Shown piece by piece: positions 6,806 through 18,500 of a stretch of 23,777 bases of DNA (the stretch's first letter is position 1; each line of letters starts with the position of its first letter). Made by a program: the position numbers and the translations under genes. Under the pieces are notes generated by a model, which was not told the DNA's origin, did no database searches, and saw only the letters and a list, made by a program, of their open reading frames with translations. Origin of the DNA: a virus (Duplodnaviria; Heunggongvirae; Uroviricota; Caudoviricetes); the IMG/VR virus record IMGVR_UViG_2698536484_000001, positions 1 through 23,777 of that record; one strand, written 5' to 3'.

Positions 6806-7392
6806 TAGCCGCCCCCCAGTAATGACGCCACGTTACCCGTGATGCTTTTCAGCAGTGAAGTATCTGGAGGTTTTGTGGTTTTGTTGCCGCTGTTCTGTAC
6901 CGCCGACGTGCTGGCCCCTTCCTTCATGTTGGTTTTATCCGCGACGGTAATCTGCTGTGTCCGGGAGATAATGACCTCCCTCAGGGTGAGGACGGCGGAC
7001 AGGACGTTTTCGGTTGTCTTGTCCGTCGTCACTTCCAGCGCCCGGATCAACATGTTGCTGTACAGCCGTTTACCGGTTACCACATCGAAGGGGATACGGC
7101 TTTCCTGCAGATCCAGTAGCTCCTGATACGTCTGCTGAGGACTCAGGCCGAGCAGGCTGGTAGCCGTCAGGTTACTGGCAAAATCCAGCAATGCGCCGCC
7201 ACCGGCGAAACCAACCTCCATCACCACTTCTGACGGTTTTTTATAGGCATGATCAGCGACAGCGGCCCCGACCTCTACCGGATGCTCTGTTATTTCAAGC
7301 ATATCTGTATGCTTCTCTGAAATAACAACACTGGGAACAATCATTCCTATTTTTCTGCTCTGCTGATGAAAAAGTGTAGAGAGAATATCCAC
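6805..7392 (-). CDS. Tail protein following tape measure (195 aa)
   Basis: Start overlaps the tape measure stop; occupies the slot of Mu gp43 / PBSX XkdP but is shorter; function by position only. Confidence 0.4.
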   Translation of the reverse strand: MDILSTLFHQQSRKIGMIVPSVVISEKHTDMLEITEHPVEVGAAVADHAYKKPSEVVMEVGFAGGGALLDFASNLTATSLLGLSPQQTYQELLDLQESRIPFDVVTGKRLYSNMLIRALEVTTDKTTENVLSAVLTLREVIISRTQQITVADKTNMKEGASTSAVQNSGNKTTKPPDTSLLKSITGNVASLLGGG

Positions 7393-9377
7393 TAACCCAC
7401 CCTCACCTGATTACTTCGCATGACCTGAGCATTTGCAGACTGTTGCCGACGTGCAACCTCATTACCGACAGCGTGCGGATCTCCGCCACCGTAAATATGG
7501 TAGGTATTTTGCTGGTTAACCTCTGTCACTTTGCCACTAATTCCCGCCACGGCAGCCTTATTAATCAGCTCTCGAGAATAGATATTTCTTCCATTCTCAT
7601 GCTGGATAATGCTGCTCATCAATGCTGACATGGTTTGCGGATCGCTCATATTCAGGGCAGCCCGGGGATCCACTCCCAGTCGTTGCGATACAGCCCTGAT
7701 ATACGCGGTTGTGTTGTTATTATCAGACGCAGGTGCCCAGGTAGAGATAATTTTCTCCACACTGTTTATTCCCCGTCCGGCGTACAGCATTAACTGACGA
7801 GCAAGAGCCCGTAATCCATCAAAAGCGGTTTCAAATCTGGCAAATCGCCCGCCCGGTCGTTCAAGAGAAGCCCCCGCCTGACCAGCAAAATTAAGGTTTC
7901 CCGGATTGTTATTCCGTTCTCCTCGCTTCGTAGCCTGTGCATGTTGTTCCGGCTCAGCACCTGGAATATCTGACTGAATATTTGCGCCTTTTACGGTATG
8001 AGGATTACGACCAAAATCGGTATCAATGCCAAGCCAGCGCAATGAATCTCCAATATTTTGTTTCGTGTAATCCCAGGATGACTTCGCACTGGCACCAATA
8101 TTTTCGCGATCGGAGTACAAATAAGCAGCATAAGCCATCCAGCCTTTTAACCATGGAGGTACCGGCAAACCAGATATTTTCCCGAAAGCCCCCAGAACCC
8201 TGGATACCCAGACACCCGCGATGAATGTACCGAGGATTTCCAGTGCATTTTGCCAGCCGCCAACACCATCTTTTAGTTCCAGAAGGTGATCACGAAGCCA
8301 GGTGATCGCATCCTTCGCTTTATCTATTGCCGGTTGCCATTTTTCCCAGTCGATAAGACTGTTACCGCCTTCTTTCCATGTTTTGTAGTCTTCCCACAAG
8401 AGACCGAGAGCCACGATCAGACCGGTAATCAGCCCTATAGGTGACATCCAGAAAGTAGAGTTAAGTATCCGCATGGCGACAACCAGACCGCCGATAACCT
8501 CTATCAGGGTTTTCGTTTCGGCATCCAGTTTCCCCCACCACTCGATGATATCTCCGACACCATCGACTATCCGAAATGCTACCCGCCCGACTATCTCACC
8601 CAGCCAGAGGATCCCCTTTATGACCTTTGTGATGGTGACTTCAATTTTGGGAAAATTTTCAATTATCTTTTTGCGCAGGTTATCAATCTGCCCCGCCAGT
8701 CCGCCCGCAAGATTCGATCCGATTTTGTCCCGCGCCATCCCGGCCATTTCACCGAGCGATTTCAGCGAGGTCATAAACCGGTTTGACGATAAGGCAGCCT
8801 GATCGGCATTAAATCCGATCGCTTTCACCATTTCTGAATACTGAGCGCTGAACTGCCCCACTCCGCGACGCATAGCCATCAGGGTATTTTCGTCAATGCC
8901 CAGCATCTGCGCATACTGGTTAGCCCGGTAATACGGCATACCGCTGAGCTTCTGGCCTACACCTGTAAAAATAGCGGCCATGTCACGCATGTTGCCGCTG
9001 GCATCACGGGTCTGTACGCCCAGGCGATTCAGGAAGCCTTCCGCCCCGGGATTGTTACGAATAAACCGGGAGAGGCTTTCCAGAGAAGATCGCGCAGCGT
9101 CCACGCTGCCGCCAACCTGCGAAACCGCATAGCCAATAGACTGAATTCCCTGGACTGTCGCGCCGGTGCGCTGTGACGCCCAGTAAAGATTATCCAGACC
9201 GGAGGCGATCTTAGCCGTAAAGGCCACCACGGACAGCGCAGCTCCTTCAACAGCCAGCCCCATTTTGATGACATTTGCAGTTGTACCGGCGAGGACAGAA
9301 CCGAACTTTTTCGCTCCTGCATCATCCACACTGAAGCCAAGCGAGACGAGGAAATCTTTAATAGTTTCAGCGTTCAT
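7392..9377 (-). CDS. Tail tape measure protein
   Basis: Long ORF after the chaperone pair; track ORF starts at a TTG at 9398, but the first ATG (9377-9375, MNAETIKDFLVSLGF...) is preceded by GGAGAGAGG and is the likelier start. Middle region has hydrophobic helix-like segments (ILWLGEIVGRVAF..., IGGLVVAMRIL..., IGLITGLIVALGLLW) typical of tape measure proteins. Confidence 0.75.
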   Translation of the reverse strand: MNAETIKDFLVSLGFSVDDAGAKKFGSVLAGTTANVIKMGLAVEGAALSVVAFTAKIASGLDNLYWASQRTGATVQGIQSIGYAVSQVGGSVDAARSSLESLSRFIRNNPGAEGFLNRLGVQTRDASGNMRDMAAIFTGVGQKLSGMPYYRANQYAQMLGIDENTLMAMRRGVGQFSAQYSEMVKAIGFNADQAALSSNRFMTSLKSLGEMAGMARDKIGSNLAGGLAGQIDNLRKKIIENFPKIEVTITKVIKGILWLGEIVGRVAFRIVDGVGDIIEWWGKLDAETKTLIEVIGGLVVAMRILNSTFWMSPIGLITGLIVALGLLWEDYKTWKEGGNSLIDWEKWQPAIDKAKDAITWLRDHLLELKDGVGGWQNALEILGTFIAGVWVSRVLGAFGKISGLPVPPWLKGWMAYAAYLYSDRENIGASAKSSWDYTKQNIGDSLRWLGIDTDFGRNPHTVKGANIQSDIPGAEPEQHAQATKRGERNNNPGNLNFAGQAGASLERPGGRFARFETAFDGLRALARQLMLYAGRGINSVEKIISTWAPASDNNNTTAYIRAVSQRLGVDPRAALNMSDPQTMSALMSSIIQHENGRNIYSRELINKAAVAGISGKVTEVNQQNTYHIYGGGDPHAVGNEVARRQQSANAQVMRSNQVRVG

Positions 9378-9612
9378 TATCCTCTCTCCATTTCTCAATG
9401 CGCCGCTGGTTATCCGCTTTTACCGCCAGATGGTCATTCAAAAGAGCAATATCGTACAAATCGACAGAGCCATCTTTAAGTGCTGTATAAGGAATTAACC
9501 CGGCGTCAACCGGATTGAGAAGGTAGGACAGCCCGTCCGGCAGGCTGTTAAACGTCAGCCATGTTGCAGGCTCTGCGTCGTGCTGGTAAGGGGTGTAGGC
9601 AAAAAATTTCCC
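9367..9612 (-). other. Programmed -1 frameshift extension of the tail assembly chaperone (G/GT-type)
   Basis: In-frame chaperone codons CUG GGA AAU UUU UUG (9614-9600) contain overlapping slippery heptamers G_GGA_AAU / U_UUU_UUG. The -1 frame from the slip site is open for 78 codons with no Met (FAYTPYQHDAEPATWLTFNSLPDG...IEKWREDNER) and stops at TGA 9369-9367, just inside the tape measure start. It exactly fills the otherwise unexplained 9399-9554 gap. Confidence 0.55.
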
Positions 9613-10007
9613 AGCGAATCGGCGACCACCCGCGCCACCAGCTGCAGCATGACCAGCAAGTCAATATCATCAAACATCAGTTCGCCCTGGGTAAATACCG
9701 GAACCCATCCGTCCATATGACGCCGCGATACCACCGCAAGACAGGGATGAATAATCGCATCGGTGTCATCTTCGGTCAGGGAAGACAGTTCCTCAGCGAT
9801 ACGCGGGAGCATGGTTTCAAACACCGGTTTTAACTGCTCGAATTTCACGGTGTCGATTTTGCCATCAGCAGGCAAACGGGAGCGAATGCTCCCGAAATCT
9901 GACATCATTCCTGCCAGCACCGGCAGAAGTTTGCGGGTCACTTTCAGCTGATCAAAAACGCTGAGTTTTGCCGCGCGATATTTCACGCCTTTGATTTCGA
10001 ATTCCAT
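9555..10007 (-). CDS. Tail assembly chaperone (zero-frame product)
   Basis: 150-aa ORF between tube and tape measure genes, the conserved chaperone position; carries the slippery site near its 3' end. Confidence 0.6.
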   Translation of the reverse strand: MEFEIKGVKYRAAKLSVFDQLKVTRKLLPVLAGMMSDFGSIRSRLPADGKIDTVKFEQLKPVFETMLPRIAEELSSLTEDDTDAIIHPCLAVVSRRHMDGWVPVFTQGELMFDDIDLLVMLQLVARVVADSLGNFLPTPLTSTTQSLQHG

Positions 10008-10010
10008 GTA

Positions 10011-10451
10011 TTAAAACTCCCCGAGAACCTGGTCAATCTTGCCGCAGTCAAACACCCACGGCATCGTATTACCGGTTTTAGCGTTGGCATTATCCGGTTG
10101 TTTCTGGAACGCAACACTACGTGCCGTGATGATGTCGCCGCTGACCTTGTTTCGGATCACAATAACGTTATTCCCCCATGTGGCAGAAGACTGGCTCTGT
10201 GCGTTATACGCCAGCGACAATTTTTTATTTGTCGGTGATGTCTTCAGAAGGTTAACGGTAATCGTCCCGCTTTTATCTGCATGGAGACTGTGCATCACTT
10301 CGCCATCAGCACCGATGGTCATGGTGTTTTTAGGACCGCCCATCGCAACCACAATCCCCTCTTCAGAACTTGCAGAACCGTACCCGAGGTCAATCGAACC
10401 GGTCGGCCCGGTCAGCGTCGCAGTAACATCCATAAAAGAATAGGTAGACAT
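10011..10451 (-). CDS. Tail tube protein
   Basis: 146-aa ORF directly after the sheath gene; size and position typical of contractile-tail tube proteins. Confidence 0.6.
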   Translation of the reverse strand: MSTYSFMDVTATLTGPTGSIDLGYGSASSEEGIVVAMGGPKNTMTIGADGEVMHSLHADKSGTITVNLLKTSPTNKKLSLAYNAQSQSSATWGNNVIVIRNKVSGDIITARSVAFQKQPDNANAKTGNTMPWVFDCGKIDQVLGEF

Positions 10452-10461
10452 TCACTTCCCC

Positions 10462-11607
10462 TTAGCGAACAACGTTAATCTGTACGTCAGCGTAATGAAC
10501 CGCGCCTGCAAGTTTTATTGCAGCCTGAATCACCGGAGCCTTACGGGCTTCACGTTCTGATTGTGCCTGTTCATCCAGCGGCTGGGCGTATACGTAATAA
10601 CCTTTGGGCAGCGTGTCACCTGATGACAACTGGCCAAGGTCGCCCCCGTTCCATACGCCCGGAGCAATCAGTCCATTCTGAACGGCCTGATCCAGTGATT
10701 TTTCAACATTTGATAACAGTCGGGTAATACCGGCTTCAGTCTGGGGAACTTTCGTGGTGCTGGTATAAAGCAGGTTATAGAGGTTGGTCTGCACATAATT
10801 CTGTAACCAGTCCAGGCCGTGGCGTTCATCAAAGAAATCGCCGTTAGCCATCACTCCCTGCTGGAGGATAGCTGTATCATTCTGGTAGTACACGAACACA
10901 TTGCAGTTTTTTGCATCAAGTGCCGATGCCTGGCTGACTGTCAGTGTTTCATACCCGACACCCGGCTCCTGCTTAAACTTGAGCGTAATCGCGGTATTAC
11001 TGCCATTGAAATTAACCGTGAATGCCCGGCCAAATGCAGATAACGCAGCGTATTTATTACCCGATGAATACTGAATAAAACTGCGTGAATATCCGGCGGT
11101 TTTCAGTTTTGATGCCAAATCATCGCTGGATGCAGTCTGCAGGCATTTATCATCGCTTGTCGTAATCGCCAGAATACGGCTTACAGAAGAGGATTCGATC
11201 GCCGCAGCCACTTTCAGCCAGTCTGCATCCGGAATATCTTCATCGTCTGCAATCCCCAGCCCATACCATGAAGTATAATCGAGCATGGCATTCACAGCCT
11301 GCTCCAGCGTCTCAGGCGTGGCCTGTTCGCTGTCTCCCTTCGTTTTCACCCAACGACCAACAAAAACCTCCTGAGGTTTCGGTGATTGAGAGAAAAACAC
11401 CTGCGCAGCCTTATATTCTGGTGATTCCACGCCAAAATCTTTTCCAATATCTTCCGCGGCAGAATAACGGCGAATGCGCTCACTTACCGGAATGATTGTG
11501 GACGGGCCGAGAATGAGTAATGCACCAAAATTTCGCCCTGATGCTGCACGCGGCGACATGATCACATCAACATTAACAACGTTTGATACAGGCAAGCCCT
11601 GTGCCAT
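10462..11607 (-). CDS. Tail sheath protein
   Basis: 381-aa ORF preceding tube and chaperone genes; the sheath-tube-chaperone-tape measure order is diagnostic of a contractile tail. Confidence 0.65.
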
Positions 11608-16408: not shown

Positions 16409-17197
16409 TCAGGCGGGATAAGAATGGGAGGTGGGAAAAACGATTTCTTTATAACAGCGACAATTCGGGAGCTCTCCAGCGTGACCGGTCATGCCATCAA
16501 GCGTTGGAGGTTTGCCCCATTCGACAAATTTACCTTCCATTTCCCGATGAGAATGCCTGACGTCACCATCTTCGGCTGTACGCCAGATATAACCATTCGA
16601 ACCAATTGACAGCGCACGCGCCTGATCCAGCGCGCCGGTTGCACGTCCAAGTTCAGTACGGGCAATCAGGTCAGCTCTGGACTTTGCTATATCACCCGAT
16701 GCGGCTATTTCTTTAGCAAAATGTTCCGCTCTCCCACCGGTCACAACAGCTTCTGTCGCCCGATTCTGGATGTCGTACACCCTGTCAGCCGCCTCGAGGG
16801 GGAGCGATTTGATGTACTTAACCTGTTCAGCAACGATGGATTTCATCACCTGCCCTGGAGGGGCACTGTTTACCAGATTGCGTAGCTCACGGCTGATGGT
16901 TTTGCTGTGTTTACGCCACTGCTCATCATTCTTGCGCACAATGTCGGCAGTAAAGTTTTCCGCGACCTTTGTCGCCCAGGGGGTGATGATTTCACTGTAG
17001 CGTTCCAGCGCCTCAATAATTTCCGTGATACTGTCATTTGAACCATCGTAGCGACCATTTACGATGTCCCCGACCGCCCGCGCTATCCTGCGTAGGCTGG
17101 TTCGATAGCGGATTTCCGCCTGACGGTTCCTGCGGTTCGTCATCAGGTTCGCCGATGCCGGGCGGCGCTTCGTCTTCGGCATTCTCGATGTCCTCAT
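16409..17197 (-). CDS. Head morphogenesis protein (Mu F / SPP1 gp7-like)
   Basis: ORF immediately after portal; basic N-terminus and C-terminal region (...GYIWRTAEDGDVRHSHREMEGKFVEWGKPP...) resemble the Mu F-like family. True start uncertain: first ATG 17197 and next ATG 17143 both lack an obvious Shine-Dalgarno and both overlap the portal 3' end. Confidence 0.6.
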   Translation of the reverse strand: MRTSRMPKTKRRPASANLMTNRRNRQAEIRYRTSLRRIARAVGDIVNGRYDGSNDSITEIIEALERYSEIITPWATKVAENFTADIVRKNDEQWRKHSKTISRELRNLVNSAPPGQVMKSIVAEQVKYIKSLPLEAADRVYDIQNRATEAVVTGGRAEHFAKEIAASGDIAKSRADLIARTELGRATGALDQARALSIGSNGYIWRTAEDGDVRHSHREMEGKFVEWGKPPTLDGMTGHAGELPNCRCYKEIVFPTSHSYPA

Positions 17198-18500
17198 CGG
17201 TAATGGATGCCCCGATGCCGGTTACGTCAGAATTTTCGCGCAAATCGGTCATAGCGGCTTTCAGTGTCATCAGACCATCACCCAGCGCTGTACTGATTGC
17301 GTTGGTGGTGTTTAACGCCACCGTTGAGCGATCGACATCAGACATTTGCCAGAGCGGGTTAAACTCAAACGTGAAATCATCCGGGAGCGGCTTGCCAAGT
17401 TCCGAACGATGCATGATGTCCAGTATCCGACGCACCGGAAGACGTAAACGCCTCTCCTGCAACGAACTGATGCGGTCGTAATAGTTGGCAAGGTCTGCAT
17501 CACCGGTAGAAAATCCTTTCGGGGACTGTCCGAACAACCGCACCAGTGGGATACCAACAGCGCCACTAATCTGTTCTGCAAACTGTGATAGGATGTCATC
17601 CAGACCACTGAAGCTGTACTGATGCGTTTCAAACTTATCCCGCGAGTCCATGAGCGTCATGCCTTCATTGCTCTGGAACTGTCGAATCAGGTCGATATTC
17701 TTCAGCAACGCTTCATACGCAGGACCACCAAGTGCGATAAGCTCGCGTAGCTTCTCCACGCTGTAGGTACGCAAATGCGCTTTGTAGACCAGCTGCGCCG
17801 CGCCGACAGTAGCGCTGTCGAACGCGGTAAGACGATCCCAGATACGCTCTACAACCGACATTCCCCATTCGTTCTCGGTCATCTTCTGCTGAAATGGCAG
17901 CGTGACGCCATCAAAGCGAATCAGTCGACTGTGATGAATGCGCCAGGCAGGAATTCCCGTTGCTGTGGTCACCACATCGTAAAACTCAGGTTTACCCAGG
18001 TCCGGCCCCATATCTTTAATGCGGCGGGTCAGTACCGGGTCAATCATCCAGCGGTCGAGCGGGAGAATCCCCTTAAACTTGCCCTTACCGATGGTTTCGG
18101 GTCGCAGCGGGGTCATTGGTGCCTGCCCCTCAATCATGATGAAACCCACCGCGCCGCCGTAGAGGCGCGACCATTTCAGCACGTCATTCAGCGCATCCCA
18201 GATTTGCAACTCATCCAGTTGTGATTCGAGAATGCCGCGATCTTTTGCATCAATTTCCGAAGTGATGCGAATGCCTTTGCGGGTCATATCATCCGGGATA
18301 GCATCGACTGCTTCGCCGATGATCCAGGATGAACGATAGGACCATTCCACCAGCATGCGGTTACGACTGGTGAAATTAGCCCGGTAGGTGGATGCTGAGT
18401 GCTGGTTAGGTGTCTGCATCCCTACGCGGGCAATAAAATTCTCATAACCATCAGCTGTAGCCTGCGCAGTTCGCCGCAGGGCTTGTTTGTTTCGTGCCAT
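17034..18500 (-). CDS. Portal protein
   Basis: 488-aa ORF directly after the large terminase with ATGA overlap; acidic C-terminal tail; size and position. Confidence 0.75.
   Translation of the reverse strand: MARNKQALRRTAQATADGYENFIARVGMQTPNQHSASTYRANFTSRNRMLVEWSYRSSWIIGEAVDAIPDDMTRKGIRITSEIDAKDRGILESQLDELQIWDALNDVLKWSRLYGGAVGFIMIEGQAPMTPLRPETIGKGKFKGILPLDRWMIDPVLTRRIKDMGPDLGKPEFYDVVTTATGIPAWRIHHSRLIRFDGVTLPFQQKMTENEWGMSVVERIWDRLTAFDSATVGAAQLVYKAHLRTYSVEKLRELIALGGPAYEALLKNIDLIRQFQSNEGMTLMDSRDKFETHQYSFSGLDDILSQFAEQISGAVGIPLVRLFGQSPKGFSTGDADLANYYDRISSLQERRLRLPVRRILDIMHRSELGKPLPDDFTFEFNPLWQMSDVDRSTVALNTTNAISTALGDGLMTLKAAMTDLRENSDVTGIGASITDEDIENAEDEAPPGIGEPDDEPQEPSGGNPLSNQPTQDSAGGRGHRKWSLRWFK

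Follow-up and report, generated by a model that had tools for sequence, protein, structure and literature searches.

Chaperone locus and neighbouring genes

The window, by which we mean the whole 23,777-nt stretch of DNA that was analysed, is the block of late genes from an E. coli prophage of SEN34-like (Brunovirus-like) myovirus type. On the minus strand, Pfam and PHROG assignments give the order sheath, tube, chaperone, gap and tape measure. The features that concern us are as follows.

10462..11607 (-): tail sheath gene (Pfam PF11863 DUF3383, E 3.9e-101; PHROG 205 tail sheath)
10011..10451 (-): tail tube gene, directly upstream of the chaperone gene (Pfam PF11681, E 8.8e-61)
9555..10007 (-): tail assembly chaperone gene ('G'-like), 150 aa, 0 frame (PF21822 Phage_TAC_15; PHROG 1688)
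9600..9612 (-): slippery run GGGAAATTTTTTG (direct sequence reading)
9603..9609 (-): A_AAT_TTT, the heptamer most likely used (conservation in relatives; heptamer class)
9367..9603 (-): -1 frame extension ('T'-like), 78 residues plus stop, with DUF6889 (translation; PF21829; phrog_4364)
9367..10007 (-): predicted fusion CDS, 213 aa, complement join(10007..9603, 9603..9367) (assuming a slip at A_AAT_TTT)
7392..9377 (-): gene for the 661-aa tape measure protein (PHROG 2276 tail length tape measure protein, E 1.4e-265)

The chaperone gene is located between the tube (10451-10011) and the tape measure (9377-7392), the position between major tail or tube gene and tape measure that characterises a lambda G/GT-type pair. 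Its residues 6-136 match Pfam PF21822 Phage_TAC_15 (E 2.9e-31); with 109.1 bits against a gathering cut-off of 22 and profile positions 1-120 of 127 covered, the protein belongs to this family. It also matches the PHROG 1688 tail assembly chaperones (E 9e-62) and is named 'phage tail assembly chaperone' in RefSeq. A Pfam scan to E 10, in which speed filters removed most matches above E ~0.1, gave only PF21822, PF21829 and a chance SopA match; the families of lambda gpG/gpT and P2 gpE/gpE' were not among the matches listed up to this value. The likeness to the lambda and P2 chaperones appears to be one of mechanism and layout only. A PDB sequence search found no relative, NCBIfam holds no model for the fusion, and an AlphaFold model of it (mean pLDDT 40.6 with a 46-row alignment) was too poor to use.

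A first-pass annotation of this DNA had described a gap of 156 bp between chaperone and tape measure. There is indeed an unannotated gap, whose proposed size assumes a TTG-extended tape measure ORF (7392-9398). With the tape measure ATG at 9377-9375, a start identical to that in RefSeq, the gap measures 177 bp (9554-9378).

The -1 frame extension

The first-pass annotation had also proposed that the gap is filled by -1 frameshifting on a slippery run 14 codons ahead of the chaperone stop, into a frame open for 78 codons without Met. The run is where it was said to be, with 14 codons between its last codon and the stop. Counted from the slip, the -1 frame does comprise 78 Met-free codons; the whole open run is longer, at 97 codons (9660-9370), beginning just past a stop at 9663-9661, 16 codons ahead of the slip. 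Read in -1 from the GGG, it yields 81 residues and no Met, and the extension contains no ATG, GTG or TTG before residue 49 of 79; in the open frame as a whole, none occurs ahead of its last third. The frame ends, as had been claimed, at the tape measure start, with a TGA at 9369-9367 and an 11-nt overlap. The extension therefore overlaps the 3' end of the chaperone gene, lacks a start of its own and terminates at the tape measure start.

The extension matches PF21829 DUF6889 (E 8.8e-20) and phrog_4364 (E 1.4e-22). Against PF21829, residues 173-211 of the fusion score 70.6 bits (gathering cut-off 23.9) over profile positions 2-40 of 40, which places the segment in the family and demonstrates conservation at the protein level. 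Some nr entries name the DUF6889 protein 'NTP pyrophosphohydrolase'. Beyond the chaperone stop, the -1 frame has a pN/pS of 0.07-0.09 and the other two phases 1.9-4.1, with variable sites distributed 7:5:32 over the three -1 codon positions. Within the overlap the -1 frame is again the more constrained (0.42-0.49 versus 1.3-2.3); two sequences with indels were left out of these counts. The -1 segment encodes a conserved protein, and this is the only frame in which it experiences strong purifying selection.

These results bear on the idea that the gap is non-coding spacer, and the open frame and slippery run a coincidence. By our estimate, a 78-codon open frame arises by chance in roughly 2% of cases at ~50% GC. 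However, the 97-codon frame is the longest off-frame run in the window, where -1 open runs inside genes have a mean of 11.4 codons and a maximum of 88, none reaching 97. Together with the PF21829 match, the frame-specific purifying selection and a conservation that extends down to 27% chaperone identity among relatives, this refutes coincidence, to which we attach virtually no probability.

The comparison of relatives bore out the first-pass reading. All 16 diverse loci, which span 27-100% identity, keep the -1 frame open from the slip as far as the tape measure start, with no stop in between. An LPxG...RPV...DLxDIAxMND block lies at a constant 21-24 codons past the Phe codon (28 in one phage), and 12 of the 16 loci have no canonical start codon upstream of it. 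Chaperone matches, for their part, end where the frames diverge: 40 of 40 tblastn matches in phage genomes stop at residue 134 or 135, exactly the slip site.

The DUF6889 segment could instead be a separate small gene with its own non-canonical start. RefSeq (PGAP) calls such a gene, WP_071819661.1 (54 aa, CTG start, 9531-9367), and some phage records call short ORFs in the gap between chaperone and tape measure. We regard this as improbable. The called CTG has no well-spaced Shine-Dalgarno sequence and cuts off the family-wide LPDG block just upstream; upstream of the CTG, inside the overlap, the -1 frame is still more constrained. Among relatives, no start codon is conserved and the called products vary from 43 to 78 aa, whereas the distance from slip to conserved block is constant.

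Even less credible is reinitiation, in which ribosomes that have released the chaperone at its stop (9557-9555) start again close by in the -1 frame and make a free T protein. The genes of this block are tightly packed and overlapping, and a CTG at 9561-9559 adjoins the stop, but there is no ATG, GTG or TTG near it. In relatives the stop lies 12 to 23 codons after the slip while the slip site is fixed, and constraint on the -1 frame is seen already ahead of the stop. A fusion produced by frameshifting fits these observations best.

Of 5426 complete E. coli genomes, 338 contain a close relative of the locus; many Enterobacterales, Acinetobacter, Burkholderia, Bordetella and Ralstonia have related loci. 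Six loci considered as counter-examples (L105, L124, L139, L148, L150 and L151) were rejected, being decayed prophages with several disruptions, some of them in insect endosymbionts; a further relative, L056, differs by one indel within the T part. Gene callers seldom find the T part, which is represented by only 26 protein clusters versus 686 for the chaperone. As far as the sequences tell, DUF6889 is the T part, encoded by frameshifting, of the tail assembly chaperone in widespread DUF3383-sheath myoviruses and prophages. The value of this assignment is mainly one of annotation, DUF6889 being filed in Pfam as 'unknown function'. The locus leaves the understanding of frameshifting and tail assembly unchanged and is an ordinary example missed by standard annotation.

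The probable slip site

In the chaperone frame, GGGAAATTTTTTG reads CTG GGA AAT TTT TTG and carries three overlapping in-phase X_XXY_YYZ heptamers, all canonical: G_GGA_AAT (9612-9606), A_AAT_TTT (9609-9603) and T_TTT_TTG (9606-9600). There are 23 in-phase heptamers in the window's 21.6 kb of coding sequence. A long -1 frame continuing beyond the 0-frame stop follows only the three at the slip site, apart from one case at 6817 that trivially enters the frame of the next gene.

Of 85 close relatives, 84 share the run letter for letter; the remaining one is an assembly with seven T that had been deliberately included in this set. Among 87 distinct relatives (27-100% identity), the second heptamer position (X_XXT_TTT, A_AAT_TTT type) is canonical in 82 and the flanking ones in 71 and 55, so that a slippery heptamer is conserved in phase within the overlap. 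Codon choice at the site is just as restricted. The glycine codon is GGA in 78 of the 87 distinct genes, which use GGA for only 52 of 684 Gly codons elsewhere; asparagine is AAT in 79 of 79, against an AAT:AAC ratio of 162:175 elsewhere in the same genes; and phenylalanine is TTT in 86 of 87, all counts from genes that are not phylogenetically independent. This near-fixation of synonymous codons indicates that the slip motif is under selection at the nucleotide level.

Natural variants that have lost the first heptamer (CTC GGA) or the third (TTT ATT) retain the second. In E. coli, A_AA.U_UU.U belongs to the H_HH.U_UU.Y class, which is among the most efficient, and U_UU.Y ranks among the best tetramers (PMC4066793). 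A_AAT_TTT is most likely the heptamer used. TTTTTTG is probably not the essential site here, because many relatives have TTT ATT instead. Two of the 16 diverse phages, ZHS and E192a, have the T_TTT tetramer only and no canonical heptamer.

A homopolymer of six T also raises the question of whether RNA polymerase, rather than the ribosome, slips here and adds one U to some transcripts. From such a +1U transcript the identical 213-aa fusion would be translated, and variants of the run with seven and five T occur in public assemblies. A run of six T is short for E. coli RNA polymerase to slip on efficiently. Relatives in Acinetobacter and Burkholderia keep only four T (AAT TTT ATT, CCT TTT ATT), and the run is missing altogether from one Bordetella phage (GGA AAT ACT TTC); what is conserved is the in-phase heptamer pattern, including GGA and AAT, and not the length of the run. 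One review regards the cases in tail chaperones as ribosomal (PMC5009743). Polymerase slippage therefore seems to us about as improbable as a separate gene, and ribosomal frameshifting remains the preferred reading.

The first-pass annotation had raised RNA folding downstream of the slip site as a possible stimulator, and nothing of the kind was found: folds of the window sequence had z-scores of -0.56 and -1.0, and an RNAalifold consensus of 17 relatives reached -0.32 kcal/mol with 2 invariant pairs and no conserved structure. An 8-bp hairpin ~50 nt downstream was rejected as a stimulator, being too distant from the slip and not conserved in Klebsiella phage Mulock. A missing stimulator is usual for lambda- and P2-type sites (PMC3091744). 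A GGGTGG conserved 13 nt upstream of the slip would be explained by coding. The family also provides a clean natural data set, which points to A_AAU_UUU or C_CCU_UUU, without an RNA stimulator, as the functional slip site.

More speculatively, the three heptamers might form a stimulator-free multi-site slip region that sets the fusion unusually high, or in a buffered ratio, relative to the short product and yields two fusion isoforms, and the six T might act as an on/off switch for the tail in prophages. The first two heptamers would produce an isoform with ...GNFFAY... and TTTTTTG one with ...GNFLAY.... The thought of a mutational switch comes from the public assemblies, in which seven T would give fusion only and five T no fusion. 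We consider this combined proposal doubtful.

Frameshifting model and known systems

We are confident that the chaperone gene makes a -1 frameshift fusion in the ordinary arrangement of tailed phages, as judged from position, frame, slip motif and termination, all of which fit the conserved G/GT-type organisation put forward in the first-pass annotation. The fusion that it predicted also stands, at 213 rather than roughly 215 residues. Its junction, ...ADSLGNF|FAYTPYQ..., is identical to the in-frame protein of the rare assemblies with seven T. A literature search returned no experimental paper on the PF21822/DUF6889 chaperone family and no demonstrated fusion in any member; DUF6889, PF21829, PF21822 and 'Klebsiella phage Mulock' gave no matches.

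In the proposed mechanism, most ribosomes would terminate at the chaperone stop at 9555 and produce the 150-aa chaperone. At the run at 9612-9600 a minority would shift into the -1 frame, which they would follow to 9367, giving the predicted 213-aa fusion. This one-base backward slip would most probably occur on A_AAT_TTT, while tRNA-Asn occupies the P site and tRNA-Phe the A site. We infer the slippage, its efficiency and the choice of heptamer, as we do the binding partners, which are taken by analogy from lambda G/GT and P2 E/E+E'. The common N-terminal part should bind the tape measure protein, and the C-terminal DUF6889, present only after frameshifting, would be expected to bring in the tube protein for polymerisation of the tube around the tape measure. 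Both products would be expected to be absent from the virion.

In lambda, G/GT arises by -1 frameshifting at G_GGA_AAG (Levin 1993; Xu 2004, 2013, 2014; reviewed in PMC5009743), with a product ratio of 30:1. As in the prophage, the gene lies just upstream of the tape measure, the -1 extension has no start and no stimulatory RNA is needed. The prophage G_GGA_AAT differs from the lambda heptamer by one base, and the lambda roles, with the G part on the tape measure and the T part on the tube or tail subunit, would be expected here. Unlike lambda, the prophage is a contractile-tailed myovirus with a DUF3383-type sheath, no lambda family is among its Pfam matches listed up to E 10, and its relatives point to A_AAT_TTT, not to a GGGAAA heptamer.

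P2 produces E/E+E' by -1 frameshifting at TTTTTTG (Christie 2002, cited in PMC3091744), a heptamer identical to 9606-9600 here. It shares with the prophage the myovirus type, the order of sheath, tube, chaperone pair and tape measure, and the missing downstream hairpin. The two differ in that no P2 family is among the Pfam matches listed for the prophage proteins and the short product has 150 aa here versus 91 aa in P2. The frameshift sites of dnaX and IS3/IS911 share the X_XXY_YYZ tandem-slippage logic and the same host translation machinery (PMC4066793), but they require a Shine-Dalgarno-like element on the upstream side and, on the downstream side, a hairpin or pseudoknot; no such feature is evident here.

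The closest counterparts are true homologues. Klebsiella phage Mulock (GenBank MN098327, gp14/gp15) has a chaperone that is 59% identical, and Burkholderia phage Magia (NC_070954, gp15/gp16) one that is about 42% identical over the aligned C-terminal part. Both records name a 'tape measure chaperone frameshift product', joined annotations that are bioinformatic rather than experimental; the RefSeq record of the E. coli prophage is without one. The two phages and the prophage have the same domain pair and the same aligned slip position, at which Mulock carries a run identical to that of the prophage and Magia carries C_CCT_TTT.

Gene context of the gap

The gap between the chaperone and tape measure genes very probably holds the frameshift-encoded part of a tail assembly chaperone of the G/GT type. 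Every gene of the region lies on the minus strand, and the gap separates a 150-aa ORF from the tape measure gene.

Genes around the gap (window positions, strand, matches)
11607-10462, minus: tail sheath gene (PF11863 DUF3383; PHROG tail sheath)
10451-10011, minus: tube gene (PF11681)
10007-9555, minus: 150-aa ORF, the chaperone (PF21822 and PHROG 1688 in its frame)
9377-7392, minus: tape measure gene, from its ATG (PHROG 2276, E 1e-265)

The first-pass annotation gave the gap as 156 bp; the gap exists, and measures 177 bp when the tape measure ATG is used. Baseplate genes (Dit-like, plug, hub, Baseplate_J) lie 3' of the tape measure gene, and tail terminator, capsid, portal, terminase and holin genes 5' of the sheath gene; together with the tail genes, these make the window a myovirus late-gene block. 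A DNA search matched the window in 338 of 5426 complete E. coli genomes, chromosomally in every case, with O55:H7 DEC5E as the top match (99.9% identity). Four induced Escherichia phages (vB_EcoM-606R2 and others) share 97.9% identity with it, Yersinia phage YP3 85% and Salmonella phage SEN34 (Brunovirus) 77%. Judged by these matches, the window belongs to E. coli prophages.

Over its C-terminal third (about residues 407-649), the tape measure protein (7392-9377, minus) matches PHROG endolysin and tail injection transglycosylase families, and its RefSeq name is 'lytic transglycosylase'; it therefore has a probable peptidoglycan-cutting domain. The longest ORF of the Mu F-like head protein (16409-17197, minus) shares 164 nt with the portal ORF (17034-18500, minus), and the true start of the former is probably further downstream.

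Coding in the gap and probable entry from the chaperone frame

The 150-aa ORF ends ...GAT TCG CTG GGA AAT TTT TTG CCT ... GGC TGA. As had been claimed, it contains a slippery run before its stop: GGGAAATTTTTTG at 9612-9600 (minus) holds three overlapping canonical heptamers in the frame of the ORF. After eight stops within 9954-9661, the -1 frame is open for 97 codons (9660 to 9370), and its stop, TGA at 9369-9367, falls within ATGAACGCTGA at the tape measure start. Translated from the slip, it reads GKFFAYTPYQHDAEPATWLTFNSLPDGLSYLLNPVDAGLIPYTALKDGSVDLYDIALLNDHLAVKADNQRRIEKWREDNER, again as claimed without Met. Over the entire -1 ORF, no ATG, GTG or TTG comes before a TTG within the conserved domain, at residue 49 of the extension's 79 residues.

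A chance origin of the open frame and slippery run is disfavoured. Open -1 runs within genes of the window average 11.4 codons (maximum 88) and never reach 97. The window's coding sequence (21.6 kb) contains 23 in-phase heptamers; apart from a trivial case at 6817, these three alone lead into a long -1 frame passing the 0-frame stop. There, GGGGGGC (6811-6817, minus) lies in phase in the Dit-like gene (7392-6805), three codons 5' of its stop, and the -1 frame, open for 104 codons, is that of the next gene (6805-6503); this is probably a trivial coincidence of the 4-nt gene junction.

In the predicted fusion, scanned against Pfam and PHROG, residues 6-136 hit PF21822 Phage_TAC_15 (E 2.9e-31) and the tail assembly chaperone family PHROG 1688. 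Its C-terminal part hits PF21829 DUF6889 (E 8.8e-20) over residues 173-211 and phrog_4364 over residues 161-213. Among 60 distinct gap-free relatives (76-100% identity), variable sites 3' of the chaperone stop are distributed 7:5:32 by codon position of the -1 frame. The -1 frame has pN/pS values of 0.07 and 0.09 against SEN34 and YP3, versus 1.9-4.1 in the other two phases; in the overlap it is again the more constrained (0.42-0.49 versus 1.3-2.3, on small counts). The gap thus codes for protein in the -1 frame.

A tblastn search of 50,697 phage genomes with the chaperone gave 40 matches, down to 27% identity, and every alignment stops at residue 134 or 135, exactly the slip position. We compared 16 diverse loci from phages of Escherichia, Salmonella, Yersinia, Klebsiella, Hafnia, Bordetella, Edwardsiella, Providencia, Burkholderia, Ralstonia and Acinetobacter, together with an unassigned phage and one filed under Elizabethkingia. 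In all but one, the -1 frame stays open between the aligned slip position and a point no more than a few bases from the tape measure start; in the exception, an Acinetobacter contig, it ends 93 nt short. The distance from the aligned Phe codon to the start of the conserved block LPxGxxxLxRPV...DGxxDLxDIAxMND is a constant 21-24 codons (in one phage, 28), and 12/16 loci have no canonical start codon upstream of the block. These three features argue against an independent start of the extension; termination-reinitiation is likewise disfavoured. Entry from the chaperone frame, without an independent start, is supported by the comparison.

The RefSeq model at 9531-9367 (minus), a 'DUF6889 family protein' of 54 aa, begins at a CTG and thereby cuts off the conserved LPDG. 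Gene callers place the chaperone in 686 protein clusters and the extension in only 26, with ragged N-termini (43-78 aa). 'NTP pyrophosphohydrolase', the name that many nr entries give to the same 9367-9531 (minus) ORF, seems to be a misnomer that has been propagated.

The slip site

The slip site was aligned in 87 distinct chaperone genes, a set reached by adding 55 species-level genome loci and 32 further viral contigs.

Overlapping heptamers of the window (minus strand) and their state in the 87 genes
9612-9606: heptamer 1, G_GGA_AAT, ending at the Asn codon; canonical in 71/87
9609-9603: heptamer 2, A_AAT_TTT (X_XXT_TTT), ending at the Phe codon; canonical in 82/87
9606-9600: heptamer 3, T_TTT_TTG, ending one codon past the Phe codon; canonical in 55/87

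The Gly codon of the aligned site is GGA in 78 genes (elsewhere in them the rarest Gly codon, 52/684), the Asn codon AAT in 79/79 (elsewhere AAT:AAC 162:175) and the Phe codon TTT in 86/87; these counts are phylogenetically non-independent, but the contrast with elsewhere is large. The site is thus under selection as nucleotide sequence. Natural variants lacking heptamer 1 (CTC GGA) retain heptamer 2, as do Acinetobacter and Burkholderia variants lacking heptamer 3 (TTT ATT). GC-rich Burkholderia phages carry C_CCT_TTT, Ralstonia has G_GGT_TTT plus T_TTT_TTC, and non-canonical sites still carry at least a T_TTY tetramer. In E. coli, Sharma et al. (PMC4066793) rank H_HH.U_UU.Y heptamers and U_UU.Y tetramers with those most prone to shifting, a top class that excludes G_GG.A_AA.U and U_UU.U_UU.G. 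Because heptamer 2 is the commonest, is kept in the variants and belongs to this class, we infer that A_AAT_TTT is the working slip site. Slippage there would yield ...ADSLGNF-FAYTPY..., a fusion of 213 aa, where roughly 215 had been predicted.

The only rival with some substance is RNA polymerase slippage on the T6 run. Rare public assemblies have T7 (window 9600-9606; 1896-1909 in relative locus L097), giving a genomically in-frame 213-aa fusion (cluster P0001, 16 members, including E. coli ISC7 CDL28562.1), or T5, with a 152-aa +1 product (a cluster of 24 members, of which some lie on 5-Mb NCBI contigs). However, the arrangement is kept in relatives with only T4 or no run at all, and the phased heptamer is conserved whereas run length is not. 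These T7 and T5 variants may reflect either sequencing errors in the homopolymer or genuine inactivating mutations.

Three loci (L109, L086, L152), 50-75% identical to the enterobacterial chaperone, are filed under Chryseobacterium sp. 18061, Elizabethkingia phage EKP1 and Bacillus sp. (a 395-bp contig), likely through contamination or misassigned host. Decayed copies of this tail module (L148 and L150, from Arsenophonus, L105, L124, L139, L151), some in insect endosymbiont genomes, have multiple frameshifts and stops in chaperone and extension alike and look like eroding prophage remnants.

The first-pass annotation had proposed a fold prediction for a stimulatory structure downstream of the slip. 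None was found: the 113 nt and 60 nt 3' of it are no more stable when folded than shuffled sequences (z -0.56 and -1.0), and 17 relatives gave no consensus structure (-0.32 kcal/mol). GGGTGG (9625-9630, minus), 13 nt 5' of GGGAAAT and conserved in most Enterobacterales relatives (L002 and others), could be a weak Shine-Dalgarno-like element, pairing weakly with the anti-Shine-Dalgarno (GGUG); the conserved ARVVAD coding sequence fully explains its conservation.

Comparison with known tail chaperones

Domains, selection, slip-site conservation and annotated relatives make it highly likely that this is, as first proposed, the conserved G/GT-type arrangement of tailed phages. Such an arrangement is ordinary and already known: within this chaperone family, GenBank annotates the frameshift in Klebsiella phage Mulock, whose slip run is identical (GGGAAATTTTTTG), and Burkholderia phage Magia. 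A literature search found no experimental demonstration for this chaperone family. The added value is modest: DUF6889 is very probably the frameshift-encoded part of the chaperone, its RefSeq gene model is exposed as a workaround, and comparison indicates A_AAT_TTT as the functional heptamer.

Lambda produces G and GT in a ratio of 30:1, G binding the tape measure and T the tail tube subunit, and the virion contains neither (PMC5009743). In P2 the slip, on TTTTTTG, is 2-3 fold more frequent (PMC5009743; PMC3091744). The window's site resembles those in P2 and related phages, which also lack hairpins (PMC3091744); in general, the motif itself is the primary determinant of shifting (PMC4066793). 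By sequence the window's chaperone belongs to a different family from those of lambda and P2, with no detectable homology, yet it would work alike, through the same conserved frameshift arrangement.
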